64,000 nt of DNA from a virus. The translations under genes and the position numbers were made by a program. Each line of letters starts with the position of its first letter. The stretch's first letter is position 1. This document shows, in pieces, positions 19,383 to 54,872 of the stretch. The stretch lies in IMG/VR virus record IMGVR_UViG_3300045988_152178; one strand, 5' to 3'. The notes beneath the pieces are model-generated. The model saw only the letters and a program-made list of their open reading frames with translations, was not told the origin of the DNA and did not search any database.

Positions 19383-19412
19383 CCTCCGTTCCCGGCGATT
19401 CCTTCGTCGGTC
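19383..19412 (+). repeat. hairpin repeat copy A (divergent)
   Basis: CCTCCGTTCCCGGCGATTCCTTCGTCGGTC, 10 nt after the 19373 stop. Carries an A:T to G:C compensatory pair and one G-T wobble. Confidence 0.7.
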
Positions 19413-19451
19413 TCATATCCCCCAAAAATAAACATTAAAAATAAAAAAGCA

Positions 19452-22400
19452 ATGGCAAAGAATAAAACAGAGGCTATCATCACGCTCAACGGCCAGCAAC
19501 CGCTCCAGGTATTGAAGCAGTTGCAGGAGGCAGCAGCGGGTATATCCGACCAGTTAGATGCGGCTCAGGCGAAGCTGAAAACCCTGAAGCCGAACACTGA
19601 CCCATATAAAGCCCTCGTTGCAACCATCAATGATTTGAAGAAGCAGTATGATTTGCTGGCTTCTGCACAGATTAAGGATATTTCTGCCAATGAGCGTTTA
19701 CAGAGCGTGGTGGACCAGCTCAGTAATACTTCGCTCCGTCAACTTCGCCGTGCATTGGGCGACGGCAAGCGTCAGCTCGAAGGCTTGTCGGAGGCAGAGC
19801 TGGAGCAGGCTAATTCCATCCGTGCGATGATGAAGACAGTAGGCGACCAGATACGTCTGCTGGAAGGAAAGTATGTAAAGATACGTGAGGGATTGGCAAG
19901 CATCGGTACGCAAAGCGACCAATGGCTCAGTAAGGCTATTGCACAGCAGAAAGACCTTATGGACTATACCCGACGCGGTACGAAGGAGTATAAAGAGCAG
20001 GAGCAGGTGATGCAGATGCTTACCGCCGAGCAGAATAAGCGCAATGCCGCCGTTTCTGCCGAAGCTGCTGCCAAGCGTCAGGCTCAGTTCAAGCAGCAGG
20101 TAGCATCGTCAAGACAGATGCTTTCATCTACCGACACGATGAAGAACCATTCGCAGACTGAAATCCAGACTGCCATCAATACCCTGAAACAGGCACAGGG
20201 TCAGAGTAATATCGGTGGCAACGAGTGGAAGCAGTATGCTGATGAGATAGCCAAGGCAGAGGAGCGGCTTGCATCGCTTGCCGGTAAGGTAAAGGAAGTG
20301 AAGCAGGTAATGTCCGAAAAGGATGCCAAGGACACTATTACCTTTATGGATAGTCATACCGAAGGTGAGGTTCGTGAGGCTATCAATACCCTCAGACTTC
20401 TTCAGGCGCAGACGCATATCGGTAGCGAGGAATGGAAAAAATACGCTATCTCTATTGCCGATGCAGAGGAGAGTCTGGCTAAACTCACGGGTAAGGCGAA
20501 GGAGGTAAAGGAAGAGCTTTCTCTTACTGAAACGAATGAGCGATTGAAAACTTTAGGCGAGCAGTCTGAGCAGAGTTTGCAGGATATGCTCAGAGTTCTT
20601 CAGGAGGCTAAAGTTTCGATGAAGCCGTTCTCTAAGGAATGGGAAGACCTGGCTGCGAAAATCGACAGCGTGAAGACCCGAATGGCAGATGTTGCCAGCA
20701 ACTCGCCTTTCGAGCGTAACTATGATACCGCTCAGAAGATGGCTCGACAGGATGGATTGTTGGATAAAGAGGGTTCCCTTCGCAATCCGACTAAAAATGA
20801 CCTGGAATGGTCTAAAAGCTATCTCCAGAAGGAATTGGGCAATACTTCTCCTTTTGAAACTGTCAAGATAGCGGAAATAAAGGAAGCTCTTGGTATGTTG
20901 GACGAACGCCTCAGTGCGTTCAAGGATAATGCCGATAAGTCTGCCATGTCTGCTGAGAAACTGAATGAGGTTCTTAGTAATATGAAGACCGCCTCTCTTG
21001 ATGATCTGAAAGCCGCGTCTGCCGAACTGAATAAGCAACTTGGCAAGCTGGCTCCATCTTCCGATGCAGCCAAGCAGGTAAAACAGCAGTTGCAAGCCCT
21101 GGATAAGGAAATCAAGCAGGTGGAGGATGATGTGGTAGATGTAAATGATGTCATCGCCCGCAGCAAAAAAGGCAAGGCTTCTATCGAGGAACTTAAAAAA
21201 GCCTATCAGCAGTTACAAGCCGAGTTGAATAAAATCAATACCGGCGACGAGGAATTTAAGAATAAGCAGAAGGCTCTAAAAGATCTGAAAAAGGAGATTG
21301 ATAATGTGACCGGTGCAGCACAGAAACAAGGTGGTGCTTGGCATACGGCTTTAAAGAACCTTACGGCATACGTGGGTCTCTTCCAGGCATTTAACGCTAT
21401 TAAAGATACTGTTACTTCCGCTATCAAGAAGAACTTTGAATACTCTTCTTCTTTGACGGATATTCGTAAGGTGTCCGGACTCACGATGCAGGATGTCAAT
21501 AAGCTGTCTGAGGAATTGGCTAAGATAGATACTCGTACTTCTGTTGATGGTTTGGCTGAACTTGCTTACCAGGGTGCAAAACTCGGTATGGGTAAGTATG
21601 GCGTGGAAGGTATGGCTCAGTTCGTAAAAGCTGCCGACCAGATCAATGTAGCCATCGGCGAGGAGATGGGCGAGGAAGCGCTGCCGGCTCTTTCTAAGAT
21701 GGTGGAGACGATGGGCCTTATCCCGAAGATGGGTATCGAGAAAGCGATGCTTGCTACGGGTTCGGCTATGTTTAAGTTGGCTTCTACCTCTACCGCCACA
21801 TCTGGCAATATCGTAGAGTTTGCCAAGCGATTAACCGGTGTGAGCCGTACAGCAGGTATTACTACCGACCAGTTGTTGGCACTCGGTTCTGCATCTGATT
21901 CTCTCTTCCTGATGCCGGAAGTGAGTGCTACGGCTATGTCTAAGTTTATCGTAGCCTTGCAGAAGAACCATAACCTTATCGAGAAGGATTTGGGCATTCA
22001 GCAGGGTACCATCAAGAATATGTATGCTGCTGGTAACGCCATGGATGCTATTGTTCTTGTATTAGAGAAGATGCGTGACAAGGGCAATATGAATGCTTTG
22101 GGCAGTATCTTTAAAGACCTTGGCTCCGATGGCCAGCGACTCGTTACCGCTATGGTAACTATGTCTAAGAACGTAGATGTGCTGAAAGACCATCTTTACG
22201 AATCTCAGGAGGCATTCGAGGAGGCGACGGCTGTAACCAGTGAGTACACGATGCAGCAGCAGTCAGCAGCAGGTATATTGGATAGAGCCAATAACCTTTG
22301 GGAAAAGGCATTTGTCAACCCTGATGGCGTGGAAAGTGTGAAGGCTATGGCGCAGGCTTGGTACGATATGTCGCAGATGATACTTCAGAGTCCTATTTTT

Positions 22401-25400
22401 AAAGGTACTCTGCAAGGTGCTCTCTCAATGGTTATCACCTCCTGCAAGATATTCGTTACCCTTTTGCCGCTCATCATGAATTATCTGGTTGGTCTGGGTA
22501 TTTGGAAAGCGGCTGCATTTATGTGGGACTTCGGCAAGGCTATCTGGGCAGCAGCAAAGGCGCAGGCAGGCTTTAACACTGTTACGAAATTAAATCCATA
22601 CGTAGCATTGGCAAGCGTTCTTGTTACGATTGTCGGTGTATTCTATTCTTATGCCAATGCCGCAAGCGAGGCAGCAGCAGCTGAAGCTGAGGCAAAGCGT
22701 AAGGCTGGCGAATGGAAGAATAAATTAGGCGAAGCTGAGAAGCAGACGGATGATTTGACCCGAAAACTGCATTCTTATAAGGTAGCTCTCGAAGCTGTCA
22801 ATCTTTCGCAGAAAGACCGCAATACTCAGATTGCTCGATTTAACAAGGATTTCCGTCAGTACATTAACAAACTTGGTATTGAAATCAAGAGTGTGGATGA
22901 TCTGCGTAAGCATTATAGTGCTCTTTCTTTGGAAATTCAGCGTGCCACTTACTACCGACTCCGTGAGGAGGCAAAGCAGGACGCTCTTCCTGGTTATCAG
23001 AAAGACAGACTTGCTGCTGCTAACATGGTTAAGAAATATATCAGTGAGAACGATTTTAAGTATGGTGGTTTCACGGTAAAGGATATTATTCGATGGTTCC
23101 AAAAAGGTGCAGATGCTAATGCAGCATACTCTTACTTGATAAAAGGCTCCTTAAAAAATACTTATGTCAATGGAAAGCTGGGTGGAGCAAATAAGGATAT
23201 TAAGTTCAATTTTAAAACGGGTGAATATTCTTATGACCGCAAAAATAAAAATGGAGCTACACGTGACAGTGATTACGAGTTGTTATCTCGTCTTCGTTAT
23301 CTTTATAATGCAACAAATAGGGAGCAGAATAAAGAGGATGAAATTAACGATTATTTCAGTCCGTTCGTTCCGAAAGACTATGTTCCTTGGGAAGAGGATA
23401 CTCCTGGTACACTTGAAAATGATGCACCTGATAAAGATGCGATCAGTGCTGCGAAGCGGGAGGCACGTGAACATAAACAGGCATTGCGCGAGCAGCAGCG
23501 TTCCTGGCGTGATGAGTTGAAGCAGAAGCAGGACGAGGCAAGCGCTATCATGGATAACGTGCGCAACTTCTATGAGCGTCAGATTAATGAAAAGCTATCC
23601 CAGGCGGTAAGCCTCGGAAGGGATGAGACAGAGCAGAAATTCTACATAGAACCGATAAAGAGACGTATGAACGAAGCTCTTGCTCAAGTACGCCTTGCTA
23701 TCGCTGGTCAGGCTAACACCTGGGAGGAGTTCAAGAAGACGATGGATAATGATCTTGTTGAGAAGACCGATGAGACTGGCGTGAATCTTTCTCAAAATCT
23801 CCTCGCTTCCATCCAAAAGAATAACGTCGATGCCCTGCGTGAGAAGATGGCTCAGTTGGGTAATAGTCTGAACCGCCCGATGAACTCCATCACGTCTGAA
23901 ATCTTTGCCAAGGCTACCAAGAATCAGCAGAATAATATAACGTTGGAGGCTCAACAGGCAGAAGCCCGACGGAAGATAGCCCGAGAGCACAACTATACGG
24001 GAGCTGTGCAGCAGAATATGTACGATGATTTCAATCAGATGGGCTTTGCCAATCCAACCGATTTTGAGTTGGCAGATGAAGAGTCTGCAGAAAGACGTAA
24101 GAAGCATATCATCGCCATGTATGAGCAGGCAAGAAAGCAAATCGCCAACCTTTATACAGTTGATGTCAATGATAAAAAGGGCAGGGGATTGCTGATGCAG
24201 ATGCTCTTTGGCGATGATCCTTATGTACTGGGTGCCCGCGTTCAGAGCGTGCTGGGTGATAATGCGGAAGACTGGCGTGTGTTCTACAACAAGCTCATTC
24301 AGTATTCCGATGAATATACTGAGGCGCAGAAAAAGACCTACGACCAGGCAAAAAAGATTGCCGAGCAGATGTGGAAGGTCAACCAGCGCAATCTTGCCAA
24401 CCAGGAAGCCCTTCGCAAGATGCAGCAGGAAAGTGCGCTCTTTGGCAAGCGAACCAATATGTGGTCGAACCTCGGTCTCGGCGACCTTACCGCTGACCCA
24501 GAGGTGGAGCTGATGAAGATGAAGATGCAGATGGCAGAAGATTATTATGCTTTCGTTTTCAAAAACTCACGTAACAAGCAGCTCCTCGACGAAGCAGACA
24601 AGGCTCGGCAGGAGGCAGAACTTGCCTACGTCAACCAAATGGCAACGGCGATGAAGAACCGACTCTCGCAGATGCAGCAGCTCGTGCAGCCTATCGAAAC
24701 CTTCGGTTCGGAAGTAGGCAAGGCATTTGCTGAAATGCGCAACGATGTAAGCAGCGCACAGGAGAGTATCAAGAACGCTCTGAAGTCTATGCTTGAGTCA
24801 TGGGCTAATATGGCGCTCAACGACGTGAATACGCAGATGTGGAAGGCAATCAACGATGCAGGTGCCAAGCGAGCTAAGAAGAAAGCGCAGCCTGATATTG
24901 ATAAAGCAAGAGCCAATGCTGATGCCAATGCCGTGAAGGAAGATTTCTCAAATCTCGGCACAAAGGCGAACCCGATGTACGTGCGACTGGTAGATGAGGG
25001 TGCAGCTTACCTTACTCCGCAGCCGCAGTCTAACTTTGAGAAGATGACTCTACAGCAGCCTTCTCTCGGTTGGAATCCTGATGGTTCGCCTATCAATAAC
25101 AGTCCGGCGATTGTGCCTCCTTATGCGCCTCCTGCTACTCCTGAGCAGCCGAATACGCAATCACAGGGCAGTGGTGCGCCTCGTGCATGGGAGCATCGCA
25201 ACAGAGACAATGCTAATGCGTTCTACAATGATGCAGCAACACAAACTGGTGCAGCAGCCGCCGATGCTATCGCAGGTGGCGGTTCCTTCGCTGATGCCGC
25301 AGCCGGTATCACTGGTTCCTTCATCGGCGGTGTGATGAATACCGAGTTTAAGAAGGGTGGTAAATCCAAGGAAGACAAGGAGAAAGCCGACCAGTTGAAG

Positions 25401-26381: not shown

Positions 26382-26446
26382 AAGAAGGTTTTGTTGATTG
26401 TTAGTTGTTAAGTTTTTTAAGTTTATTATTATTATGTTTTTCAAGA

Positions 26447-26478
26447 CTGTTTCGCTGTGAAGCGAGGCAGCCTTTTTT
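26447..26478 (+). terminator. intrinsic terminator after the tape measure gene
   Basis: 10-bp stem CTGTTTCGCT / AGCGAGGCAG (two G-U pairs), GTGA loop, then CC plus T6. Confidence 0.6.
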
Positions 26479-26490
26479 CTTTAAATTTCT

Positions 26491-27054
26491 TTTTGGTCCC
26501 ATTTTGCGGCCAACCTCATATTTTAGTGGGCTTTTGATAACTCGCTGATTTTGTGGGCTTTTTAATCTCAAAAACATATCTTGGTCTCATTTTTCGCCGA
26601 AATTCACTACTATATATAAAATTTCCCGTGTATTTTTTCTTTTCCCTAAAATCAAAAACCCCTAACCTCAAATTAGAAGTTAGTAGCATTAACGGCTTTG
26701 CCGTAAACATCAGATAATAAGGTAGTTATGTGGATAAGTGGGAGTGGCAACTAGCGAGAGAAATGCAGGATTTTTTACATATATTCTATATATTTCTGAA
26801 ATATTTTGTTTCTTCTGCGTACATTAGTTTATAGAAAATGAGATAAAAATGAGACCAAGATAAAGCAAATCGCTGAAAAACAAGCAGATAACTGAAAAAG
26901 AATAGGGGACCAAGATGGGGACAGCAGTGGGTCAGCAGTGGGACAAAATACGCCATTTTAGCAATTAGGGGACTTTAACAATTCGCCCTTCAAAATAAAA
27001 ATGAGACCAAAATCGGCAAAATGGGACCAAAAATCGAATTTTGGTCCCATTTTT
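26491..27054. repeat. iteron / nested inverted-repeat region (candidate replication origin)
   Basis: Seven GRGACCAA cores (4 forward, 3 reverse). Two nested 17-bp perfect inverted-repeat pairs. A 15-bp-arm palindrome at 27018..27053. Immediately upstream of the primase-like gene. Confidence 0.55.
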
Positions 27055-27068
27055 GAAAAAACATCCTC

Positions 27069-27104
27069 CTCGCCCCCGTTCCCAGCGATTCCATCGCTGG
27101 TTCC
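27069..27104 (+). repeat. hairpin repeat copy B
   Basis: CTCGCCCCCGTTCCCAGCGATTCCATCGCTGGTTCC between the iteron region and the primase promoter. Confidence 0.9.
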
Positions 27105-27181
27105 CCCTCTCAACCTATATTAAATGTTAAAAATATAACTTATTTCAAATATTATATAGCTTACATATACTCTTTTCGATT

Positions 27182-27197: not shown

Positions 27198-27230
27198 CAG
27201 CAGATTTTATATAAATAATATATGTAAGGT

Positions 27231-29383: not shown

Positions 29384-30283
29384 ATGAAAATGATAATTCC
29401 TGGTGTTGAGTGGTGGCCTCAGAAGACCGCCGCACAACAGATTGCCCGAGTAGGCAGAATTTGCTACAAGAGCAAAGGTAAGCAGCCTGATGAGAATCTT
29501 TCTGAAGACAAGAAAGGAGCGTTTCTGGAAGAACAGGCAGTAAAGTTGGCCAACCGTTTCTGGGAGAGCGGTCATCGTTCCATGTACCGCCATGGCACCC
29601 TCTATTTCTTCGTCAAGAACGACAGTAAGCTGCCCAAGCATCTTTGGTCTTTCCTTGTTGCATCGCCTTACATCAATTATGCAGTGCAGGGAAAAAAAGT
29701 CTGGATCAGCAGCAATATGCAGTTCCTATGCGAGCATGGCAACATACTCGAAATGCTGTCCCCATTCAATGTGAAGGAAGCCGAGTTTATCGAGAAGGCG
29801 CTGAAATATGATTTCAAGGAAGCACTCAATCTCCTCCGTATGACGCTTGTCGTTACTACGCAGATCAGTACTAGCCGTGAGCTGAACCGAACATCGCCTA
29901 ATTGCATCAGCGAGCAGAGCACACGCTATGTGAACCTGGAGAAGAAAGGTGGCGTTCAGATTGCCCGTCCGCACTGGCTGCACGAGGGCACGAAATGGCA
30001 GAAGTTCCTCTATCTCACCGGCTGTAAGATTTCCGACTGGCTCTATCGCCGATTACTGAAATCGGGCATGAAGCCGCAGGATGCCCGCGGCATTCTCCCT
30101 CTCGATACCTATACGGTGGTAGCCTATACTTACACCATCACCGAGTGGCAGCATATCTTAGACCTTCGCTTCCGTGAAACCACCGGCAAGGCGCATCCTA
30201 ATGCCAAGGAGATAGGTTTCGAGATCAACCGCATCATCACGGAGAGATTAATGTTCGAGGCTCAAAAGAAATCTTTTAGATAA
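29384..30283 (+). CDS. ThyX-family (flavin-dependent thymidylate synthase-like) protein with non-canonical motif
   Basis: ARVGRICYKS, SGHRSMYRHGTLYF, SEQSTRY and EWQHILDLR blocks fit ThyX. The RHR-X7-S motif reads RTS-X7-S. Confidence 0.65.
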   Translation: MKMIIPGVEWWPQKTAAQQIARVGRICYKSKGKQPDENLSEDKKGAFLEEQAVKLANRFWESGHRSMYRHGTLYFFVKNDSKLPKHLWSFLVASPYINYAVQGKKVWISSNMQFLCEHGNILEMLSPFNVKEAEFIEKALKYDFKEALNLLRMTLVVTTQISTSRELNRTSPNCISEQSTRYVNLEKKGGVQIARPHWLHEGTKWQKFLYLTGCKISDWLYRRLLKSGMKPQDARGILPLDTYTVVAYTYTITEWQHILDLRFRETTGKAHPNAKEIGFEINRIITERLMFEAQKKSFR

Positions 30284-30315
30284 GCCTCCGTTCCCAGCGA
30301 TTCCATCGCTGGTCC
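30284..30315 (+). repeat. hairpin repeat copy C
   Basis: GCCTCCGTTCCCAGCGATTCCATCGCTGGTCC begins 1 nt after the ThyX-like stop. Confidence 0.9.
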
Positions 30316-30340
30316 AATAACAAATAAAGAAGAAAAAATT

Positions 30341-36411: not shown

Positions 36412-36420
36412 TCCTCTCCT

Positions 36421-36452
36421 GCCTCCGTTCCCAGCGATTCCATCGCTGGTCC
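36421..36452 (+). repeat. hairpin repeat copy D
   Basis: Identical 32-mer to copy C, 10 nt after the capsid gene stop. Confidence 0.9.
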
Positions 36453-36555
36453 AACAGGCAAGGCAGGCCTCTATAAATCCTCGGCGGCGGTCGTCTGACT
36501 TGGCGGAATATGGCTTCCGCCGCCATTTCGTTTAATCATCAAAAAAGATACAATT

Positions 36556-41931: not shown

Positions 41932-41960
41932 GAAAGGTAAAAGAGTAAAAAGGTAAAAAA
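41932..41960 (+). repeat. A-rich GGTAAAAAGGTAAAAAA-type 3' motif
   Basis: GAAAGGTAAAAGAGTAAAAAGGTAAAAAA directly after the stop at 41931. Confidence 0.7.
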
Positions 41961-41992
41961 GCCTCCGTTCCCAGCGATTCTATCGCTGGTTC
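41961..41992 (+). repeat. hairpin repeat copy E
   Basis: GCCTCCGTTCCCAGCGATTCTATCGCTGGTTC after the SSB-like gene, preceded by the A-rich GGTAAAAA motif. Confidence 0.9.
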
Positions 41993-42005
41993 TAAAGTCG
42001 AAGTT

Positions 42006-43106
42006 ATGAATGAACAGATAAACCTCACCATCCCCCGCGGCTGGAACCAATGCACTCCCTCCCAGTTGGAAGCCCTCGCTGCCATCATGCAGGAGCAGAT
42101 AGCCAAGGTGGACCGCTACCATCCTTTCGATATGCAGAAGGTGAAGATAGCCGTCTTTTTCCTCTTTGCCGGGATAAGCATCAATGCCTATCCCGACCCT
42201 CGCGACCCCATCAATGAGCAGCACTACTTGGTAAGCATAGAGCCGCAGAAGAAGCGCTTCCTGAAGAAGCTCCTCTCCCTCTGCACCCCCGTTCCCAGCG
42301 ATTCCATCGCTGGTCCCCAGTCGGCTAGCAACTTTCCCCTCTATCTTTGGCAGATCAACTATTGGCTCTCCCCGAAAGCCAAGACCAACGATAAGACCGC
42401 CCCTGAGTACATCGCTCAGGGCGCAGGTCTTCTCGATTGGCTGGATGCAGATAGTGGCAATTTCCTCACCCGTTTCCCCTATCCATCTATCCGGCAGAAA
42501 TCCAAGTGGTATCGTCGTGCAAAAACCTTCCAAGGTCCGCACCCCGATCTCGATGGTTTCTCTTGGCAGCAGTACCGTTTTGCCAGCGACATGATGCAGA
42601 CCTACACCAAGTTAAGCAACAACCTGGTAAAGATGAAGAAGATGGATAAATTCACCGAGGAACAACTCCAGACGCAAGCCCAGAGTGTAGCCAGTGCAAG
42701 AAACATGTTCCTTGCCACCATCTTCAACACCACCACCCAGTACGTCGATCCGACAACAGGCATCACGAAATACGATTTTCACTACGAGTCGAAGCAGTTC
42801 ACCGAGAACGCAGGTTATTTCGTCAAATACCCGGAAACCAATTGGCAGGTCATCCTCTTCTGGTGGAGCGGCATCATGCACACCCTAGCCCATCGCTACC
42901 CTCACGTGTTTAAGGTGCAGAAGTTAAGCAAAAGCAAGCCGCAAACCCCGATGGAAATCTACACCGCCACCACCGCCACGATGCAGAAGTATGCCGGTCT
43001 AACGGAAGATCAGGTCAACACCCAATCCTATTCCCTCGTTCTCGAACACCTAGAAAGGTTGTCGAAAGAGAATGAGGAAATGGAAAAGATGAGGAGAGGG
43101 AAATGA
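42006..43106 (+). CDS. hypothetical protein carrying an in-frame copy of the hairpin repeat
   Basis: 366-aa uninterrupted ORF. Repeat copy F (42286..42316) is translated as PVPSDSIAGP. Confidence 0.6.
   Translation: MNEQINLTIPRGWNQCTPSQLEALAAIMQEQIAKVDRYHPFDMQKVKIAVFFLFAGISINAYPDPRDPINEQHYLVSIEPQKKRFLKKLLSLCTPVPSDSIAGPQSASNFPLYLWQINYWLSPKAKTNDKTAPEYIAQGAGLLDWLDADSGNFLTRFPYPSIRQKSKWYRRAKTFQGPHPDLDGFSWQQYRFASDMMQTYTKLSNNLVKMKKMDKFTEEQLQTQAQSVASARNMFLATIFNTTTQYVDPTTGITKYDFHYESKQFTENAGYFVKYPETNWQVILFWWSGIMHTLAHRYPHVFKVQKLSKSKPQTPMEIYTATTATMQKYAGLTEDQVNTQSYSLVLEHLERLSKENEEMEKMRRGK
42286..42316 (+). repeat. hairpin repeat copy F, inside CDS 42006..43106
   Basis: CCCCCGTTCCCAGCGATTCCATCGCTGGTCC in frame within an uninterrupted ORF. 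Confidence 0.9.
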
Positions 43107-43127: not shown

Positions 43128-44156
43128 ATGAATATAGGTTTAATAGATGTAGATGGGCATCATAAAAAGAAAAAAATCGGCGCTACGGTTTACCCTAATC
43201 TCGCGTTAGGTAAACTAGCACGCTGGCATATAATGCAGGGCGATAATGTAGAGTGGGCGCAACCTATAAATCTTTTCGATCATCAGCATTATGATATACT
43301 TTATGCTAGCAAGGTGTTCAATTTTTCGCCTGATGTTGATTTCTCTCAGTATTCCTACGATAAGTTGGTAAAAGGTGGAACTGGATATGACATATATAGC
43401 AGTTTGCCGACCGAGGTAGATAGCCTGCAACCTTATTATGAGCTTTTTCCCGATATACCCAAGAATACGGCTTATGGCTTCCTTACAAGAGGCTGCCCTA
43501 ACAAGTGTTCCTGGTGTGTGGTTCCTAAAAAAGAAGGTGTCATCCGTCCTTATATGGATATAGAAGAAATCGCCATCGATGGTAAGGATCATGTGGTATT
43601 GATGGATAATAACATTCTTGCTGCAGGAGATTATGCGAGGCTGCAGCTTCAGAAGATTATAGACCTTGGTTTGCGTATAGATTTTAATCAGGCGATGGAT
43701 GCACGATTAGTAACCCCTGAGTTTGCTTCCTTGTTGGGTAAGGTGAAGTGGATAAATAATCGCATCCGTTTCGGTTGTGATACTACACCACAGATAAAAT
43801 CCTGCGAGCGGGCCATGCAGATGATAAATGATGCTGGCTTCAAGGGCGAATATTTCCTGTATACGATGGTAGGCGGTAAAAACGATTTTAAAGAATGTTA
43901 TAACCGCATTCATTATTGGTGGCAGCGGTTGCAAGACTTCCGTCGCGACCATATCGGCAGGGCAGTTTATGCTTATGCGCAGCCATATAGAGACCCCATG
44001 AACCCCAACAATGCAATACCGCAGTGGCAAAAGGACTTGGCGAGATGGTGCAACAAGCGAATGTTGTTCTGCAAGGTGGATTTTAAAGATTTTTCTCCGA
44101 GAAAGAACTTCACGTGCCAGGAGTATCTTTTGAAGCTAAAAAAGCAGCAAGGATAA
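43128..44156 (+). CDS. radical SAM protein
   Basis: FLTRGCPNKCSWCVVP CxxxCxxC motif. The N-terminal region resembles a truncated B12-binding-like domain. Confidence 0.75.
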   Translation: MNIGLIDVDGHHKKKKIGATVYPNLALGKLARWHIMQGDNVEWAQPINLFDHQHYDILYASKVFNFSPDVDFSQYSYDKLVKGGTGYDIYSSLPTEVDSLQPYYELFPDIPKNTAYGFLTRGCPNKCSWCVVPKKEGVIRPYMDIEEIAIDGKDHVVLMDNNILAAGDYARLQLQKIIDLGLRIDFNQAMDARLVTPEFASLLGKVKWINNRIRFGCDTTPQIKSCERAMQMINDAGFKGEYFLYTMVGGKNDFKECYNRIHYWWQRLQDFRRDHIGRAVYAYAQPYRDPMNPNNAIPQWQKDLARWCNKRMLFCKVDFKDFSPRKNFTCQEYLLKLKKQQG

Positions 44157-44175: not shown

Positions 44176-44210
44176 CTCGCCTCCGTTCCCAGCGATTCTA
44201 TCGCTGGTCC
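44176..44210 (+). repeat. hairpin repeat copy G
   Basis: CTCGCCTCCGTTCCCAGCGATTCTATCGCTGGTCC, 20 nt after the radical SAM stop. Confidence 0.9.
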
Positions 44211-44219
44211 TTATCCCTC

Positions 44220-44256
44220 TTTGTCCCCACTAAAACTATAAAAACCCCTAACTTTA
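44220..44256 (+). promoter_or_regulatory. weaker member of the promoter family (portal operon)
   Basis: TTTGTCCCCACTAAAA, 25-nt gap, TAACTTTA (G to A in the -7 box). Confidence 0.35.
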
Positions 44257-44346: not shown

Positions 44347-46164
44347 ATGACAAGCAAAAACAAAAACAGAGTAACCAACCTGCAGCAACTCCAAAATCGA
44401 AGTGAGGAGCTGAAAGATGCAGGCTATGTAGCCGTTCGCCCAGATGCCTTTACGTCGCCTAAGAACGGCGGCAATAAGGTCTTTTCCTGGAACGACTACG
44501 TTCACGGTATGCTCCTAACCACAGCCGGTATGTCGGCAAGCGGTGGCGACGCAGGCGGTTCTGTAGCACGACAGCAGGTTTCCACTATCTTTGCATCGAG
44601 CGGCGGCGAGAACCTGGGTAAACCGAAGGACGTAGGTACCGAAGGCTTAGGCTTTATGGAATGGGGTATGGCCAACCGACTGCCAAACCTTATCTGGATG
44701 CTCTCCCGTATGTCGCCTTTTACTGCAGCAGGAGTAGATTACATCAAGAAGATACTGGTAGGTCGTGGTCCCGCAGCCAAATATCACTACACCCAGTACG
44801 TAGGTGGCAACATCACGGAGAAATATATCCACTACGAGAGCGCAGGGGTCTTGCTCCGTGGTCAGATAGCTGACCTCAAAGCCAGGGAAGAGGCAGCTGC
44901 CGAAGCCAAGCGCCAGAACGAACAGCAGAGCCAGAACGGGCAGTCTCAGCAGGAGGAGTCACCGTTCTCTGCGGTTCAATCGCAGGTCTTATCCTCCGAT
45001 GAAGAGGATAGCGAGGAGATGAAATCTCTGAAAGAAGCTCTCCGCAAATGGGAAGAAACCAATGCCCAGCTTCGTGATTTCCTGAAAAACAACGACCTGA
45101 TGCAGACCTTCCTCGACCTGGCAGGAGATATGGCTCTGATGTCTCAGTGCTTTGTAGAACTCCAGCTCAATCAACGTTCCCTTGACGAAAGCGGCAAAGC
45201 TGTTCCTACCGCCAAGTGGACCCCGAAGGTTATCGGTCTGAAGCATCGCAGCATCTTCACTACTCGCCTGGAGCGCATGGACGAGAACTACCGCATCAAC
45301 TATGCCTACGTCAGCAATCAGTGGCTCGACCCTACTCAAAACGTCGGCGTGCAGAAAGAGGAAGACCGCAAGATAGCGGCTATCCCCTATCTCCCTACCA
45401 CATCAGCCGTGAAGGATTTGCAGCGCAATATCCGTGAGGCACGTCAGAAGCAGGTAAGCCGCAAGAAACGTCCTACTCGCTTTATCATGTCACCAAGAGA
45501 TTTCGGTGGTCCGTACTATGCCGATGCCCTTTGGCACTCTATCTTTGCCGGCAGCATTTTTGAATACGCCTTCACCATCGTAGATGACCGCCTCACCCGA
45601 AAGCGCAACAGCAATATCATCGGTAGAGTTATCTATATCCATCAGGACTATATCAGCAAGCTCTATCAGCAGCAGGGCAAGCAGAAGGAGAAGACCATCG
45701 GTGAGATTCAGGACGAAATCTTCACATCTATCAATACATGGCTCGCCAACCCCGATAATGCTGGTCAGGCGCTCATCTCCTCTGTCTTCACTGGCAGCGA
45801 CGGAAAAGAGCACAAGGCTTGGGAAATCGTAGAAATCGAAACCAAGGCAAATGATCAGGCGAATGCCGACAAAACCGAGCTGCAGGAAATAAGCAGCATC
45901 ATCTTCTTTGCCATGGGTCTTGATGCAAAGCTCATCGGTAACACCCCAGGCGATACGGCATCATCGGGCGGTACCGACCTGCGAGAGCGTTTCCTGGTAA
46001 AACAGATTCAGTTTGCCCCATTGCAGCAGTTGATGATACGCCCGCTGGAAGTTTTGAGCCGTTTCAACGACTGGGACGAGCACCTGGTATGGCAGATAGA
46101 CCGAGAGGTATTGACCACCCTCGACAACTCGAAGACCGGAGTGGCGAAACAGGAAGCCTCTTAA
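44347..46164 (+). CDS. putative portal protein
   Basis: 605 aa. It is the only remaining ORF of portal-like size outside the tail-fibre block. No motif recognised. Confidence 0.4.
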   Translation: MTSKNKNRVTNLQQLQNRSEELKDAGYVAVRPDAFTSPKNGGNKVFSWNDYVHGMLLTTAGMSASGGDAGGSVARQQVSTIFASSGGENLGKPKDVGTEGLGFMEWGMANRLPNLIWMLSRMSPFTAAGVDYIKKILVGRGPAAKYHYTQYVGGNITEKYIHYESAGVLLRGQIADLKAREEAAAEAKRQNEQQSQNGQSQQEESPFSAVQSQVLSSDEEDSEEMKSLKEALRKWEETNAQLRDFLKNNDLMQTFLDLAGDMALMSQCFVELQLNQRSLDESGKAVPTAKWTPKVIGLKHRSIFTTRLERMDENYRINYAYVSNQWLDPTQNVGVQKEEDRKIAAIPYLPTTSAVKDLQRNIREARQKQVSRKKRPTRFIMSPRDFGGPYYADALWHSIFAGSIFEYAFTIVDDRLTRKRNSNIIGRVIYIHQDYISKLYQQQGKQKEKTIGEIQDEIFTSINTWLANPDNAGQALISSVFTGSDGKEHKAWEIVEIETKANDQANADKTELQEISSIIFFAMGLDAKLIGNTPGDTASSGGTDLRERFLVKQIQFAPLQQLMIRPLEVLSRFNDWDEHLVWQIDREVLTTLDNSKTGVAKQEAS

Positions 46165-46198
46165 AAGTAAAAAGGTAAAAAAGTAAAAAGGTAAAAAA
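46163..46198 (+). repeat. A-rich motif, tandem 16-mer
   Basis: AAGTAAAAAGGTAAAA twice, directly after the stop at 46164. Confidence 0.75.
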
Positions 46199-46205
46199 TA
46201 AGGAT

Positions 46206-47369: not shown

Positions 47370-47502
47370 AAAGGCTTATTTTCGGTTTTATGTCGTATCA
47401 AGCGTCTTCAAAACCGCTTAATTTGACGTTTGATCGGGAATCAAGCCTAAAACAGGCAAAAAATATTCTTAATTTTCAAATAAACAACAAAAACAAGGAT
47501 TT

Positions 47503-48618: not shown

Positions 48619-48623
48619 AAAAA

Positions 48624-52180: not shown

Positions 52181-52186
52181 CTCCCT

Positions 52187-52220
52187 CTCGCCCCCGTTCC
52201 CAGCGATTCTATCGCTGGTC
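52187..52220 (+). repeat. hairpin repeat copy H
   Basis: CTCGCCCCCGTTCCCAGCGATTCTATCGCTGGTC, 7 nt after the 968-aa gene stop and upstream of the KS gene. Confidence 0.9.
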
Positions 52221-52252
52221 TCACAATAAGAAACATAAAAAACGAAATAAAA

Positions 52253-53461
52253 ATGAATAAAGAAATTTTGATTACCGGAACCGGTATTCATTCTGCCCTA
52301 GGCAGAAGTACCAGAGAAGTAGCCATGAACCTTTATAAGGGTAAATGCGGATTACATCACGACGAATGCCGTGATAAATACAATTCCGATTTATGCGGCA
52401 ATGTGCCTGTCTGGATAGAAGAATATAACGAAATTCTCACTCGTGCGCAGAGAGCATGCCTTCCCCTTCATGGCTTTTATGTACTCGATGCAGTATTTGA
52501 AGCCTTAAAGAAAGCCAAGGTAAGTAAGGATTTTCTCGAAAATCATAACGTGTCTATTATCGTAAGTAATGATTCTGAATGCTACGAAAGTCGGTCGGTG
52601 GTGCATCATATAGGTCAGGAAGTACATAACAGAACATTGTCTGTAGAAACATTGTTTCGCTCGCTCAATTCTACTATCAGCATGAACCTTGCATCTATCC
52701 TTCATATTCATGGCTTATCACTTACCGTGAGCGCAGCCTGTGCAGGAGGTGGCCACGCCATCGGACTTGCCAAGATGTTGCTCGATAGCAAGCAGACGGA
52801 AATGGTAATTGTGATTGGCGCGCAGGAATGCGGATCTCAATATTGCATGGAAGCTTTTGATGCCCTCGGTGTTTTCTCACCCGATAACGTACAGCCGTTC
52901 GGCAAAGGCAGAAATGGACTGGCACCATCGGGTGGCGCAGCCTGCATCATTCTCGAACCATCGGATAGTCTTCGTCTGAAAGAAGAGAAGGTGCATTCCT
53001 TCGCTTCTCTTTCCGGTTATGGCTTCTCTACCAATGGAAAAGCTGTCACTACCCCTGATAGCTATCAGGAAGAAGTATCTATGCTGAATGCTATCGAGAA
53101 CGCTGGTCTGGACGAAGGTATGATAGACGTAGTACTTGCTCATGCTACCGGTACCCCGATGGGCGATGAAGCCGAGGCAAAGGCAATAGAGAGAATTTTC
53201 CCTATCTGTCCGAACGTAGTGGCAACAAAGGGCATGACAGGTCACGAATGTTGGATGGCAGGTGTATCGCAAGCCGTACAAGCCGTAATCATGTTCACTT
53301 ATGGCCGTCTGTTCCATGCAGCCACCACCGAGGAGAACGCCTTCCCGAAACTTAACCTGGTGATGCGCCCTAAGTATTACGATCCTCATCATATCCTCTG
53401 TAATGCCTTCGGCTTTGGGGGTACAAACTCATCATTTGTCATTTCAAAAGTAAAAAAGTAA
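52253..53461 (+). CDS. beta-ketoacyl-ACP synthase (KAS I/II, FabF/FabB-like)
   Basis: Active-site Cys in TVSAACAGGGHAIG (Cys163), His in LAHATGTPMGD (His297), Lys/His in TKGMTGHECWMAG (His331), and PFGKGRNGLAPSGGAACIILE. Confidence 0.85.
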   Translation: MNKEILITGTGIHSALGRSTREVAMNLYKGKCGLHHDECRDKYNSDLCGNVPVWIEEYNEILTRAQRACLPLHGFYVLDAVFEALKKAKVSKDFLENHNVSIIVSNDSECYESRSVVHHIGQEVHNRTLSVETLFRSLNSTISMNLASILHIHGLSLTVSAACAGGGHAIGLAKMLLDSKQTEMVIVIGAQECGSQYCMEAFDALGVFSPDNVQPFGKGRNGLAPSGGAACIILEPSDSLRLKEEKVHSFASLSGYGFSTNGKAVTTPDSYQEEVSMLNAIENAGLDEGMIDVVLAHATGTPMGDEAEAKAIERIFPICPNVVATKGMTGHECWMAGVSQAVQAVIMFTYGRLFHAATTEENAFPKLNLVMRPKYYDPHHILCNAFGFGGTNSSFVISKVKK

Positions 53462-53478
53462 AAAGGTAAAAAAGGTAA
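53446..53478 (+). repeat. A-rich motif overlapping the KS stop
   Basis: AAAAGTAAAAAAGTAAAAAGGTAAAAAAGGTAA. Confidence 0.7.
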
Positions 53479-53479
53479 C

Positions 53480-53731
53480 ATGAAAAAAGAAAAAATAAGC
53501 TCTCGCATTATCACCATCGTGAACAGCCTGAAAACATCGTGGGTAAAACACGAAGTAACCCTTGCCTCTAATCTCCGTGACGAGGTAGGGCTGGAATCTA
53601 TTGATTTCCTCGATATGATCCAGCAGGTGGAAATGATGTTCCACATCAAGATTACCCCGGAAGAGGCGAAAGATTGCAAGCTCGTTTCCGATGTAGTGAA
53701 TCTCGTAATTTTAAAAGTGGTAAAAAGGTGA
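53480..53731 (+). CDS. acyl carrier protein
   Basis: 83 aa. Phosphopantetheine-site-like GLESIDFLDMIQQVE (Ser40), 18 nt after the KS stop. Confidence 0.75.
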   Translation: MKKEKISSRIITIVNSLKTSWVKHEVTLASNLRDEVGLESIDFLDMIQQVEMMFHIKITPEEAKDCKLVSDVVNLVILKVVKR

Positions 53732-53736
53732 AAAAC
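53713..53736 (+). repeat. A-rich motif overlapping the ACP stop
   Basis: AAAAGTGGTAAAAAGGTGAAAAAC. Confidence 0.6.
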
Positions 53737-53743
53737 AAGAAAT

Positions 53744-54805
53744 ATGGCACAGAAAATCAATCTCACATCGGGTTCCGTCTTTGCCGGAAACCCGATAACC
53801 TTTACCATCACCCCCTCCGTGGCTACGAATCCATCCTTCCATCGGGTCATCGTGGAAGTGCATTTCGATGATGGTACGGGCAGTTACGAAACCAATAAGC
53901 TCACCATCCCCGTTACTACCGAGGGAAGAGATGTATCGCTCGATATATCCTCTGCTCTCCGCATTACGCTGGATAGCTACAAGTATACCGCTACTCCATC
54001 CACCTACCCCGTGGTAAGCTGGTACATTAAAGCCTACGATGAGTATATGGATAATAACGGCGAGGTGCATACCAATACGGGCGAAGTCTATTATCCTGCC
54101 GATGGCTCGAAGAATAAAGGTGAAACCAACCTCCGCTGTATAGCCGGAGCCTTTAGCGATATAGAGCGCCTGAAGTCGGGCGTAACTAAGGCTGTCACCC
54201 TTCTCTCCTGCAAGCCGACAGCTACCTACGAAATAGCCGTTGTAGGCGAGAGCTTTGTTTACCCGGTATCATATAGCGCAGGTCAGAACCTAGCCACCAG
54301 CAGCTCATTGACCGCCCCTGCATCCGAGGAACAGGCAATCACGAAAGAAGGTGCGCAGAGCATTCATGGACACCTTGTCTATGCCCTACCCTCTTCTGAA
54401 GCTGAAGACCGAACCACCTTCCGCTTCATTAACCGCTTCGGTTGTCTGGAGAGCATCAGTGTTCCGAAATCCTATTCTCAGAAGTTGAACGTAACAACTA
54501 CAGAGTATACGGAAGCAGTACAGGAAACCTTCAATGAGTTCTCACGCTCGGCTATAGATAAGCAGAACGACAAAGAAGGCTGGCTTTACCAAAGCGACCC
54601 TTTAACCGAAAAATGGCTGCGATGGTATTATCACGAGTTCCTGATGAGCAAGCATGTATGGTTAAAGGTAAACGACATCTGGCTCCCTTGTACTATCGCC
54701 CTGAATGATGAGATCACTATCAAGGATAAAACCAACAAGGTTATGCACTCAGTTTCCTTTACCGCAAAGCTCGGTATCAATGGCAACCCTTTCACTTCCA
54801 TCTAA
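53744..54805 (+). CDS. hypothetical virion protein
   Basis: 353-aa ORF, followed by repeat copy I with a T-run. Confidence 0.65.
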   Translation: MAQKINLTSGSVFAGNPITFTITPSVATNPSFHRVIVEVHFDDGTGSYETNKLTIPVTTEGRDVSLDISSALRITLDSYKYTATPSTYPVVSWYIKAYDEYMDNNGEVHTNTGEVYYPADGSKNKGETNLRCIAGAFSDIERLKSGVTKAVTLLSCKPTATYEIAVVGESFVYPVSYSAGQNLATSSSLTAPASEEQAITKEGAQSIHGHLVYALPSSEAEDRTTFRFINRFGCLESISVPKSYSQKLNVTTTEYTEAVQETFNEFSRSAIDKQNDKEGWLYQSDPLTEKWLRWYYHEFLMSKHVWLKVNDIWLPCTIALNDEITIKDKTNKVMHSVSFTAKLGINGNPFTSI

Positions 54806-54830
54806 CCCCCCGCGAGCTGCGTATCTCCCT

Positions 54831-54872
54831 CTCGCCTCCGTACCCAGCGATTCTATCGCTGGGTTCTTTTTT
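54831..54872 (+). repeat. hairpin repeat copy I with extended stem and T-run (terminator-like)
   Basis: CTCGCCTCCGTACCCAGCGATTCTATCGCTGGGT with a 10-bp stem, then TCTTTTTT. Confidence 0.85.

Follow-up and report, generated by a model that had tools for sequence, protein, structure and literature searches.

A small, possibly REP-like hairpin repeat is shared by Segatella copri and many of its phages

The hairpin that recurs in the 64-kb stretch of phage DNA analysed here (the window) is a repeat shared by Segatella (Prevotella) copri and many of its phages, and not a private phage signal. The distribution, orientation, position, polymorphism and covariation of the family were observed directly. 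Its direction matches that of the upstream gene in both host and phages, and phage copies usually lie close 3' of a stop codon. The explanation that we favour, and to which we give about an even chance, is a REP/BIME-like family of small palindromic repeats of the S. copri complex, which is denser in several S. copri phage groups and may function in transcript punctuation and recombination. Judged from sequence, its most probable role is that of a hairpin at transcript 3' ends or between cistrons, and of a portable linker for recombination.

Results

The hairpin family in the window

An earlier note, made from the letters of this DNA, had described a nine-copy hairpin family. The family proved to be real: eight near-perfect copies and one diverged copy (copy A) are present, all on the plus strand, where none are expected. 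The exact 19-nt hairpin CCAGCGATTCYATCGCTGG was found on this strand at 27082, 30294, 36431, 41971, 42295, 44189, 52200 and 54844 (eight observed versus 0.03 expected from 100 shuffles of the window). A 35-mer with up to three mismatches matched at 27069, 30281, 36418, 41958, 42282, 44176, 52187 and 54831, again with zero expected. The positions given earlier for copies C to F were 3–4 nt off, which was caused only by the choice of the flank start.

The conserved unit comprises about 32 nt (GCCY-CCGTTCC-CAGCGAT-TCY-ATCGCTG-G-TCC) in which an unpaired, C-rich 5' tag (GCCYCCGTTCC) is followed by the 8-bp stem with its TCY loop and then by a TCC tail; the central GCG is invariant. Folding of the copies agreed with the 8-bp stem and 3-nt loop that had been proposed, at about −11.9 kcal/mol for each copy. 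By direct reading, all three forward frames of the unit are free of stop codons, and so are the reverse frames of the form with a TCC loop.

A covariance model of the family, built from 56 variants, scored the nine copies with 41–57 bits when the window was searched. It also added two decayed copies on the plus strand (copy X and the relic copy in Table 1), while the minus strand of the window returned a palindromic echo only. Because about 85% of the window genes are on the plus strand, the plus orientation of nine out of nine copies is weak evidence for a link to gene direction within the window, and this link rests on the host and related-phage loci. Seven of the nine copies follow a stop codon, as had been stated, at a spacing of 5–34 nt. 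The exceptions are copy B, 695 nt past the tape-measure gene, and copy F, which lies inside an ORF.

Table 1. Copies of the hairpin element in the window
Copy	Position	Strand	Context and remarks
A	19380..19414	+	Diverged; stem CCGGCGA/TCGTCGG, 5-nt loop; 41 bits
B	27070..27104	+	At the end of an 850-nt non-coding region
C	30282..30316	+	Spacer between thymidylate-synthase-like and MazG-like genes
D	36419..36453	+	14 nt past the stop of the putative major capsid gene
E	41933..41993	+	Hairpin unit 41959-41993 plus preceding (GTAAAAAR)n array
F	42283..42317	+	Intragenic, in frame in ORF 42006-43106; reads PVPSDSIAG
G	44177..44211	+	Downstream of radical-SAM gene
X	44956..44990	+	Diverged, intragenic (CCGTTCTCTGCGGTTCAATCGCAGG) in ORF 44347-46164; 39 bits; new relative to the earlier note
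H	52188..52222	+	Downstream of 968-aa gene, 35 nt ahead of ketoacyl-synthase gene
I	54832..54906	+	Terminator-promoter cassette; coordinates include T-run and promoter
Relic	2690..2724	+	Weak, TCGCCCCCATCCTCTGCTATTCCGTCGCAGATCAA, near the end of ORF 2541-2798; 20 bits, E 2.6e-4 (rough)

Copy A starts directly past the stop codon of ORF 18819-19373, and the tape-measure gene starts 42 nt downstream. Its hairpin (19386, CCGTTCCCGGCGATTCCTTCGTCGG) has four mismatches to the family hairpin. As had been claimed, the helix is kept by an A:T to G:C change and one G-T pair; the closing pair is lost. Orthologues of copy A in related phages have a perfect compensated stem, CCGGCGAT/ATCGCCGG. The stem of copy X is likewise retained, with one A:T to T:A swap and two G-U pairs.

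The core of copy C lies 5 nt past the thymidylate-synthase-like stop and 29 nt ahead of the MazG-like ATG. The flanks of copy D can pair and lengthen the helix (−27 kcal/mol), and a separate hairpin with T-run forms a terminator further downstream (36501-36530). The array 5' of copy E begins at the stop codon of ORF 41320-41931. Copy F is part of a 69-nt (23-codon) in-frame insertion in a hypervariable protein linker, and this segment is missing from the homologue P0011/L304, whose protein is 93% identical.

Terminator and promoter fusions

A T-run had been claimed for copy I only, in agreement with the window sequence; the other copies have TCC(CC) directly 3' of the hairpin. An intrinsic (Rho-independent) terminator was thus ruled out as the identity of the family, and the earlier suggestion of a terminator holds for fusions with a T-run only, namely copy I and the cassettes of relatives. 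In copy I the stem is lengthened to 10 bp by a T to A change, and the hairpin is followed by TTCTTTTTT (intrinsic terminator) and then by TTTGTCCCC...TATCTTTG (promoter). This copy was the highest-ranked terminator-like site in a terminator scan. The terminator-promoter layout is clear for copy I and weak for copy G, which is followed by TTTGTCCCCACTAAAA and a weak, promoter-like −7 box; copies A, C, D, E, F and H have neither T-run nor promoter. Copy B lies 25 nt downstream of a canonical hairpin+T terminator, and a TAnnTTTG promoter box is located about 80 nt further on. Cassettes of 105 nt with hairpin, T-run and promoter occur in the related loci L035, L065, L083 and L159, and they are present or absent between the same two genes across relatives.

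Occurrence in S. copri and in phages

More than 116 gut viral contig stretches and 117 stretches of bacterial (GTDB) genomes contain an exact 25-mer of the element; the bacterial ones are nearly all from the S. copri complex. Counted as exact 25-mers, with the host sequence examined as 8-kb stretches, a host genome holds about 1–8 copies versus 8 in the 64-kb window, corresponding to about 2 versus 125 exact copies per Mb (~70-fold). The complete genomes HDD04, HDD05 and G8 have seven, four and one exact locus, respectively. The single locus of G8 is within a prophage. Host copies occupy operon spacers such as trpD/trpC, EIIC/KduI, GH88/GH28 and FGGY kinase/RhaA (rhaB/rhaA). The element was also found in phage loci without detectable similarity to the window. 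INPHARED contained zero relatives of the capsid gene of the window and one copy of the element only. The search of the host chromosome, which the earlier note had called for, had an intermediate outcome: the element is present in S. copri, yet it is sparse and oriented with transcription, not at random.

The host has mosaics of the element and other short repeats, which include (GGTAAAA)n arrays and palindromes with A-run/T-run arms. All copies in the window and most of those in the host are singletons, but host doublets occur head-to-head (L118, L203, L205) or tail-to-tail (L171, L176, L189, L197). The tail-to-tail pairs flank a canonical bidirectional terminator, and therefore the hairpin is in both 3' UTRs at these host loci. 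A mimic of a CRISPR repeat was ruled out, as none of the 117 host stretches showed an array; multiple matches were inverted pairs or kilobases apart.

Orientation and distance to genes

Gene calls for these counts were from a crude ORF picker. For 43 distinct host sites the upstream gene was co-oriented in 30 and opposed in 5 cases; 22 sites were co-directional, 6 convergent and 1 divergent. The 46 distinct phage sites comprised 23 co-directional, 6 convergent and 4 divergent ones, and none was antisense to both neighbours. The distance from the stop codon to the core peaked at 0–20 nt in phages, and the distance from the element to the next ATG was never below 10 nt.

Conservation and covariation of the hairpin

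Selection on structure had been proposed from copy A, and the larger sample backed this. Among the 56 variants, 95.5% of the stem cells were paired and four of the eight stem pairs covaried. Cells changed on both sides numbered 16 versus 1.7 in shuffles, and the observed covariation score was reached in none of 500 shuffles. On the sense strand there was no clear excess of G-U over A-C mismatches (~18 wobble versus 20 unpaired cells; ~11 versus 9 in a second tally), so structures of RNA and of single-stranded DNA are indistinguishable by this measure.

We also compared 39 orthologous copies anchored on the capsid gene (37 distinct sequences). The pairwise difference was 2.4% of sites in the hairpin versus 31–46% in the adjoining 20-nt flanks. 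The conserved loop, the invariant central GCG and the 11-nt 5' tag exceed the needs of a plain exonuclease barrier, and so strong a conservation suggests a specific binding factor or continual homogenisation.

Filled and empty sites

Orthologous sites were polymorphic among relatives, either filled versus empty or with alternative fillers, at copies C, E, H and others. Copy C is absent from relative L104, the spacer of copy E has five alternative states, and the site of copy H is empty in L159 and holds other repeats in L071, L083 and L091. The site of copy D is filled in 39 of 70 capsid-anchored relatives, and presence of the element behind the capsid gene does not track the capsid phylogeny. 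In a second phage group (~62 kb), the element forms the junction between four variants of the upstream gene and four of the downstream gene. Homology to seven relatives starts at 44179, in copy G. Accessory genes adjoin several copies: a radical SAM gene precedes copy G, and a ketosynthase, a carrier protein and a 353-aa ORF lie between copies H and I. Homology breakpoints in the window were not enriched at spacers with the element compared to other spacers. The proposal of module-boundary recombination is thus supported in part, by filled and empty sites and by combinatorial junctions, but not by breakpoint frequency.

Flanking direct repeats vary by site (TA..TA at site E, TTTTAA in L048, AGGTAAAA in host arrays), and no terminal inverted repeats bound the minimal unit of 32–36 nt. 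Variants with extended palindromes occur in L234, L257 and L147. The window proteins that were scanned included no transposase.

Discussion

Comparison with known systems

A REP-like element, one of several roles considered earlier, emerged as the best analogue. REPs are found mainly between co-directional and convergent genes, intragenic units included, and GTAG- and CGTC-tagged superfamilies were described by Di Nocera et al. 2013 (PMC3733652). The element shares with REP/BIME sequences a palindrome of 20–40 nt with unpaired 5' tag, 8–9-bp stem, short loop and 3-nt tail. Further common traits are extragenic, mostly co-directional or convergent spacers with occasional intragenic units, confinement to one species or species complex, and host mosaics with other short repeats, as in BIMEs. 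Inverted doublets, the replicating unit in REP/REPIN-RAYT systems, also exist at several host loci, beside the singletons that make up most host copies. The CGTC class is likewise without a known transposase; a single-copy Y1 (IS200-like) transposase flanked by repeats, the trait of REP/REPIN-RAYT systems, was not among the window proteins scanned. Unlike in REPs, the tag is CCGTTCC; most copies have CGTT and a minority have CGTC, so that neither superfamily is matched exactly. CC separates tag and stem, the stem does not start with A-T pairs, and the loop has 3 nt instead of 4–5. The low number of exact copies per host genome, compared to tens to hundreds for REPs, may count against assignment to this family. 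The main reservoir in our sample is also different, since it is phage DNA with single copies in one orientation. We know of no description of REPs as single, same-orientation copies mainly in phage DNA, and a literature search did not return one either.

PeSL (promoter-early stem-loop) cassettes of T4-type phages (PMC2839356, PMC4122927) likewise recur between genes as short conserved stem-loop/promoter motifs. Like the element, they are found where close relatives differ by an insertion, deletion or replacement, although other spacers break as often here, and they are thought to act by homologous recombination. Copy I, weakly copy G, and the 105-nt cassettes resemble them as terminator plus promoter. 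In contrast to PeSLs, most copies lack T-run and promoter, and the hairpin motif is common to the host chromosome and unrelated in sequence. PeSLs lie in hyperplastic early regions, whereas the copies described here are spread across the plus-strand block for structure, lysis and nucleotide metabolism.

Rickettsia palindromic elements, classed as CGTC REPs (PMC3733652), are small palindromic repeats in frame in genes that add a peptide to a tolerant region, as copies F and X do. They have 100–150 nt and are mostly intragenic, whereas the S. copri element has about 32–70 nt and is intragenic by exception. Correia elements of Neisseria have 100–155 bp and clear terminal inverted repeats, and they duplicate a TA target, comparable to the TA..TA flanks at site E. 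They are small intergenic repeats co-transcribed with their neighbours, which may carry promoters or terminator-like hairpins and alter mRNA processing. The minimal unit described here differs by its site-variable flanking direct repeats and by the absence of terminal inverted repeats.

Possible mechanism

According to the REP-like explanation, the element would enter, or stay in, short transcribed spacers directly 3' of stop codons in sense orientation, and it would sometimes lie in frame within protein linkers that tolerate it. The hairpin may punctuate the transcript between cistrons or at the 3' end. It could block 3'->5' exonucleases, act as a pause or weak stop signal, and thereby set the stability of the upstream segment. 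According to a published study (PMC6061677), the processed 3' ends of Rho-dependent transcripts are defined by U-less hairpins. Fusion to a T-run, as in copy I, would turn the hairpin into a full intrinsic terminator and give a terminator-promoter cassette. Spacer modules and neighbouring genes could be gained, lost and swapped through the short identity that the element offers, since many phages and the host contain these same 32 nt.

A wider scheme, which we regard as speculative and unlikely in this full form, is that S. copri and its phages share a set of intergenic blocks, namely the hairpin, (GGTAAAA)n stop-codon arrays, (CAACATT)n palindromes and a 110-nt structured element, moved by a candidate machinery that acts on gene ends along transcription. 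The phages would have amassed the hairpin because it sets the fate of cistron mRNA and permits trade of cassettes with each other and with the host. This would amount to a phage-amplified REP system with a putative hairpin-binding enzyme or RNA-binding factor.

Alternative explanations

The element could also be purely selfish, a substrate of a REP-type Y1/HUH transposase or a MITE without benefit to the phage, which inserts into single-stranded DNA at gene ends or survives only there, in sense only, with hairpin and tag kept for the mobilising enzyme. We consider this possible, though rather unlikely. Consistent with it are the filled and empty sites, of which some are flanked by short direct repeats, the in-frame insertion of copy F, the stop-free forward frames (and reverse frames of the TCC-loop form) and the dimers in the host. 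So is the conservation of 5' tag, stem and loop, which REP-RAYT systems show too (PMC3733652), and so are the extended palindromes, which suggest template switching at a DNA hairpin. However, orthologous copies are unchanged while the flanking capsid protein falls to 70% identity and the adjoining spacer varies, and the element is about 70 times denser in compact phage genomes than in the host. The site-specific flanking repeats, the minimal unit without terminal inverted repeats and the negative transposase scan of the window also argue against it, and the tail-to-tail pairs around terminators track gene direction and not replication direction. The element could instead be recognised by a sequence-specific host factor that works on nascent RNA or on the transcription complex (Rho loading or factor-dependent termination, RNase processing, or an RNA-binding protein), and phages would have copied it to join host expression control. 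Loop, central GCG and 5' tag are conserved past folding needs, the flanks on either side of the hairpin are C-rich and G-poor and thus rut-like, the sense orientation 3' of genes holds for host and phages, and the element is nearly confined to one bacterial species complex. We nevertheless find this improbable: our analysis identified no such factor, the C-rich stretch has just about 20 nt, the small number of host operons with the element is odd for a general signal, and filled and empty alleles show that any single position is dispensable.

Combinatorial junctions in the ~62-kb phage group, the cassette-like accessory genes next to copies G, H and I, and a presence that is uncoupled from capsid phylogeny would fit sites dedicated to recombination (integron-attC-like or boundary sequences) that mainly serve to shuffle gene cassettes among phages. 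Such a main role is very doubtful, since breakpoints are as common at element-free spacers, the copies are not linked to any integrase or recombinase, the unit lacks the paired core sites of attC and is much shorter, and host copies lie between housekeeping genes and not cassettes. Stoperators of cluster A mycobacteriophages are asymmetric duplex sites of 13–14 bp to which the repressor of the same phage binds, and the host has none. Similar operators, bound on double-stranded DNA by a phage repressor, had been among the earlier suggestions, and many orientation-locked intergenic copies in one phage genome are indeed common to both. We rejected this idea as scarcely credible. The element is a hairpin whose stem covaries so that pairing is kept, the identical sequence occurs in host trp, rhamnose and pectin-utilisation operons and in phage loci without detectable similarity to the window, copies lie past stop codons, some inside ORFs, and not at promoters, and no repressor was identified among the window proteins scanned.

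Implications

S. copri is among the most abundant human gut bacteria and genetically hard to work with, and its phages are almost all uncultivated. The repeat is a host-specific signature that could help to assign uncultivated phages to S. copri. It is also a candidate natural part (insulator, stabiliser or terminator) for the engineering of Segatella and its phages. Its filled and empty alleles are plentiful in public data, which makes the repeat a tractable system for the study of REP-like mobility and retention. If a dedicated enzyme or binding factor exists, REP biology would be extended to Bacteroidota and to phage genomes.

Hairpin Copies in the Phage Genome

The sequence CCAGCGATTCYATCGCTGG was found exactly eight times in the window, every time on the plus strand, while 0.03 occurrences were expected by chance. 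The 35-mer of the earlier note, searched with up to three mismatches, recovered the same eight positions. Copy A has four changes in its core and keeps seven pairs through an A:T to G:C swap and one G-T pair. This is the compensation described in the earlier note. Its orthologues in related phages show a perfect stem with compensation, CCGGCGAT/ATCGCCGG. The fold of each copy, at about -11.9 kcal/mol, is a stem of 8 bp closed by a 3-nt loop.

A covariance model built from 56 distinct variants was run without filters on the window. The nine copies scored 41-57 bits, and a diverged intragenic copy (X) and a weak relic were added (see the table). On the minus strand the model returned a palindromic echo only and no other copy. 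The nine-copy plus-strand family described before thus stands, with eight exact copies and the diverged copy A, and is extended by copy X and the relic. Since most genes of the window are also on the plus strand, the orientation of all nine copies is by itself weak evidence for a tie to gene direction. Information content over de-duplicated copies defined a conserved unit of about 32 nt (GCCY-CCGTTCC-CAGCGAT-TCY-ATCGCTG-G-TCC); further 5', no more than a C/T-rich bias was left.

The window derives from a tailed phage. Neither a megablast match to the window nor a tblastn match to its capsid was found in INPHARED, so that close and capsid-level relatives are both missing from it. In front of the start codons lie A-rich tracts and no Shine-Dalgarno sequences, which points to a Bacteroidota host. 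The plus-strand block from 17.5 to 62 kb comprises nucleotide-metabolism, structural, lysis and accessory genes; among the window proteins scanned there was neither a transposase nor a repressor nor an RNA polymerase. The gene order is atypical for a tailed phage, with the tape-measure gene upstream of the nucleotide-metabolism, head protease and capsid genes. Auxiliary genes such as the ketosynthase/carrier-protein set and the radical-SAM gene are unusual in a gut phage. The radical-SAM gene aligned with no related locus compared: homology ends at about 43112 and restarts at 44179. Downstream of the tape-measure terminator, an 850-nt non-coding region precedes the primase-like gene. It contains repeated AAATGRGACCAA motifs, the last two of which form a hairpin+T terminator, and may be a replication origin or a cluster of operators.

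Features of the phage genome with coordinates, strand and setting
Feature	Coordinates	Strand	Description
Copy A	core at 19386	+	directly 3' of stop codon
Copy B		+	end of 850-nt non-coding region
Copies C, D, H		+	cores 5-14 nt past stop codon
Copies E, G, I		+	cores 27-34 nt past stop codon
Copy F		+	within ORF
Copy X	44956-44990	+	diverged, within ORF; 39 bits
Weak relic	2690-2724	+	20 bits
Minus-strand block	14058-17373	-	two DNA methyltransferases, PAPS-reductase-like protein; no hairpin copy
Tape-measure gene	19452-26381	+	2309-aa product
AAATGRGACCAA motif region	26480-27070		three motifs one way (26491-26600), four or more the opposite way (26848-27040)
Primase-like, guanylate-kinase, thymidylate-synthase-like and MazG genes		+	plus-strand block
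Head protease, putative capsid gene, endolysin, tail genes		+	plus-strand block
Structure downstream of capsid-like gene	36454-36555		CTCTATAAATCC, then CGGCGGCGG...CCGCCGCC hairpin and T-rich tail
Radical-SAM gene	43128-44156	+	followed by copy G
Beta-ketoacyl synthase, phosphopantetheine-binding carrier protein, 353-aa unknown ORF	52253-54805	+	bracketed by copies H and I
(GTAAAAAR)n arrays	11993-12015 (-); 41933-41961, 46163-46198, 53446-53489, 62284-62302 (+); 62536-62554 (-)		
Promoter class TTTGTCCCC-N~20-TAnCTTTGC	11208, 17476, 33274, 40703, 54899; weaker at 44222		weaker site at copy G

Conservation of Structure and Sequence

Standard pairs were present in 95.5% of the stem cells of the 56 distinct variants. 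Two-sided changes were seen in 16 cells compared to 1.7 in shuffles, and none of 500 shuffles reached the observed value. These events are not independent, as the variants were picked for their likeness to the consensus and include many orthologues. Four of the eight stem pairs covary (C-G to A-U or G-C; A-U to G-C or U-A; A-U to U-A; U-A to A-U or C-G), and the central trio of G-C, C-G and G-C showed wobble changes only. The selection on an RNA or single-stranded DNA structure that had been proposed from copy A is thereby supported. Single changes gave G-U in 18 cells and non-pairing in 20. These counts are roughly balanced, so a strand-specific G-U excess could not serve as proof of RNA, and the folded strand may be RNA or DNA alike.

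We also compared a sample that was independent of the element, namely 70 loci retrieved via the capsid-like protein (54-100% identity). The element lay 3' of the capsid-like stop codon in 39 of them. Among the 37 distinct capsid-anchored sequences compared, the 19-nt hairpin differed pairwise by 2.4%, versus 31-46% in the adjoining 20-nt flanks. The loop and the 5' tag are conserved as sequence, beyond pairing alone. Conservation this strong suggests recognition of the element by a specific protein, which may be a transposase or a factor that binds RNA or DNA.

Two further structures were observed. Downstream of the capsid-like gene, in the window and in the related loci L234-L303, the structure of CTCTATAAATCC followed by the CGGCGGCGG...CCGCCGCC hairpin is kept in 70 of 70 relatives, down to 54% protein identity and with or without the repeat; it may be a conserved terminator or a leader structure of the next gene. 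In extended units of phage loci L234 (100% capsid identity), L257 and L288 and of host locus L147, the 5' tag recurs as its reverse complement in place of the 3' flank (...ATCGCTGGGAACGGAGGC), and the unit becomes perfectly palindromic, with arms of about 18 bp. These palindromes look like products of template switching at a DNA hairpin.

Occurrence in Segatella copri and Other Phages

The exact 25-mer was present in more than 116 IMG/VR contig stretches among the matches listed, on contigs of 56-110 kb that came almost all from human gut. Representative genomes of GTDB had it in 117 stretches. Apart from a few obviously mis-binned contigs, nearly all of these bear the title Segatella copri or uncultured Prevotella, and these titles identify the S. 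copri complex as host. The host copies are chromosomal. With neighbours assigned by Pfam, they lay in the spacers trpD/trpC, sugar permease/KduI, GH88/GH28 and sugar kinase/RhaA, upstream of a TonB-dependent receptor and 3' of a hybrid sensor kinase. Loci per genome were few: seven in HDD04 (complete, 3.86 Mb), four in HDD05 and one, in a prophage, in G8. The density in the window (eight exact copies in 64 kb) is about 70 times that of the host. A generic host repeat, as considered in the earlier note, would be abundant and randomly oriented; the element does occur in the S. copri chromosome, yet at few loci and oriented by gene.

The usual order in the host is a (GGTAAAA)n array starting at the stop codon, a C-rich linker (AGAGCCTTAACCCCTTTGCGCCC) and then the hairpin, and this composite is found in phages too. 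Neither Rfam, which holds no family matching the element, nor ARAGORN gave a hit, so a known RNA family or tRNA-like structure was rejected. The sequence of the element was absent from the full texts searched, and the literature search found no description of intergenic repeats in S. copri or of REPs in phages.

Other short repeats share these spacers. The six (GTAAAAAR)n arrays of the window, on either strand, start at a co-oriented gene's stop codon or no more than a few bases from it, and the pattern has 14 matches compared to 0.7 expected. Such arrays also lie 5' of the hairpin in S. copri operon spacers and vary in presence among related phages; they may be a source of stop codons and give the next gene a leader that is A-rich and unstructured. 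An intergenic element of about 110 nt (CGCCCTGAAAGGGCAGAAGCTCCTAGCCCAGGGCAACACCCTGGG...GTCGCCCTGTAAGGGCAAAAGCTTTTTT) was seen in relatives at site E (L087, L030, L018, L048) and site H (L083, L111, L099, L082). It has three short hairpins, two of them resembling lambdoid boxB stems, and no Rfam match. A third type consists of long palindromes with (TTGAATG)n/(CAACATT)n arms around a GGCTAGCGCC... core, which replace or flank the hairpin in phages (L026 and L082, sites E and I) and host (L150, L162, L166, L181); Rfam gave sub-threshold microRNA-precursor matches only.

Position Relative to Genes

Gene directions were taken from a simple ORF picker, and copies with a common flank were grouped, leaving 43 distinct host and 46 phage sites. 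The element lay in sense between co-directional genes at 22 host and 23 phage sites, and between convergent genes, in sense to the upstream gene, at 6 sites of each. Divergent genes flanked it at 1 host and 4 phage sites; it was antisense to both neighbours at 4 host sites and at no phage site. In phages the core most often lay 0-20 nt past the stop codon; in the host, with the array in between, the peak was at 20-80 nt. From the element to the next ATG there were usually 30-50 nt and never fewer than 10 nt. At several host loci, convergent genes are separated by a canonical A-run/hairpin/T-run terminator with a copy on each side, the two lying tail to tail. Each of the two 3' UTRs then has a hairpin ahead of the real terminator. 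Together, orientation, distances and tail-to-tail pairs indicate that the element tracks transcription rather than replication, and gene ends rather than starts. The same transcription-following, gene-end placement was reported for REPs (PMC3733652). A Chi-like or replication-oriented signal was rejected because the inverted pairs around terminators obey gene direction.

Filled and Empty Sites

Among relatives of 80-93% identity, an orthologous spacer could be filled in one phage and empty in another. At site E at least five states were seen: empty; the 34-38-nt unit alone with TA..TA flanks; array and unit, as in the window; array, unit and the 110-nt structured element; and the (CAACATT)n palindrome. 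Site H was empty in L159 and held different repeats in L071, L083 and L091. In L048 an entire host-type composite of about 96 nt was inserted between TTTTAA repeats, and in the host a 68-nt unit was inserted within (GGTAAAA)n arrays. The flanking repeats vary from site to site, and a single clean target-site duplication was rejected. Presence of the post-capsid element was uncoupled from capsid identity, as it was found in some relatives of 70% identity and was missing from some of 85% identity. Copy F lies within a 69-nt, 23-codon segment that is absent from the 93%-identical homologue P0011 (L304). In this conserved phage protein the segment falls in a hypervariable linker with an invariant block on either side. 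As read from its sequence, the element core is free of stop codons in every forward frame.

In a second set of loci, contigs of about 62 kb with one or two copies each, represented by the S. copri G8 prophage and without blastx similarity to the window proteins, four upstream gene ends and four downstream gene starts are joined at the element in many combinations. Homology breakpoints in the window were not enriched at the element: spacers without it had 11-17 each, versus 0-14 with it. Module-boundary recombination, proposed earlier, is partly supported: the filled and empty sites and the combinatorial junctions speak for it, and the breakpoints show no specificity for element spacers. A recombination role that is not specific is plausible.

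Terminator and Promoter Cassettes

In copy I a T to A change extends the stem to 10 bp, followed by TTCTTTTTT, which makes it the best terminator-like site in 38-57.5 kb. A promoter-like TTTGTCCCC...TATCTTTG lies directly 3' of it. Promoters of the TTTGTCCCC class were found downstream of copy I and, more weakly, of copy G only; a separate TAnnTTTG box follows copy B. Relatives have a 105-nt cassette of hairpin, T-run and promoter between two genes that abut in the window, the same arrangement as in the PeSL of T4-type phages (PMC2839356, PMC4122927). The earlier terminator reading applies only to T-run-fused copies such as I. The TTTGTCCCC-N~20-TAnCTTTGC motif is an extended Bacteroidota -33/-7 pattern upstream of plus-strand gene blocks and may mark one temporal class of phage promoters.

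Discussion

REPs stabilise upstream mRNA segments, and those lying no more than about 15 nt from a stop codon can cause ribosome stalling. The element resembles REP/BIME repeats as a short tagged palindrome that is confined to one species complex, lies outside genes at their ends with some intragenic copies, forms inverted pairs at some loci and is mixed with other short repeats. Of the readings first suggested, that of a REP-like element is supported by these features. It differs from described REPs in its tag, CGTT then CC, in its low host copy number and, most of all, in its concentration in phage genomes, where copies are single and co-oriented.

RNA punctuation is judged the most likely working mechanism. 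A hairpin at the cistron end would slow 3' to 5' decay or pause polymerase, addition of a T-run would turn it into a full terminator, and the 32-nt identity could act as a recombination linker as a by-product. A study in E. coli is reported to find U-less hairpins as marks of processed 3' ends of Rho-dependent transcripts (PMC6061677).

The main rival is a purely selfish element, against which stands that copies at orthologous phage sites are unchanged while their flanks diverge. Stoperator, CRISPR-mimic, promoter and attC-like readings all failed their tests. A stoperator, also among the roles first suggested, does not agree with a hairpin that is shared with host operons and has covarying stem pairs; mimicry of CRISPR repeats was dropped because the host has no arrays, and a promoter because no Bacteroidota -33/-7 pattern lies inside the element. 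An N4-like hairpin promoter for a virion RNA polymerase was rejected since the large ORF beside copy A encodes a tape-measure protein, not a polymerase.

What is new is a REP-like repeat that a major gut bacterium shares with its phages and that is amplified in the latter. The class of element is familiar and its distribution unexpected, and public data offer many filled and empty alleles to work with.
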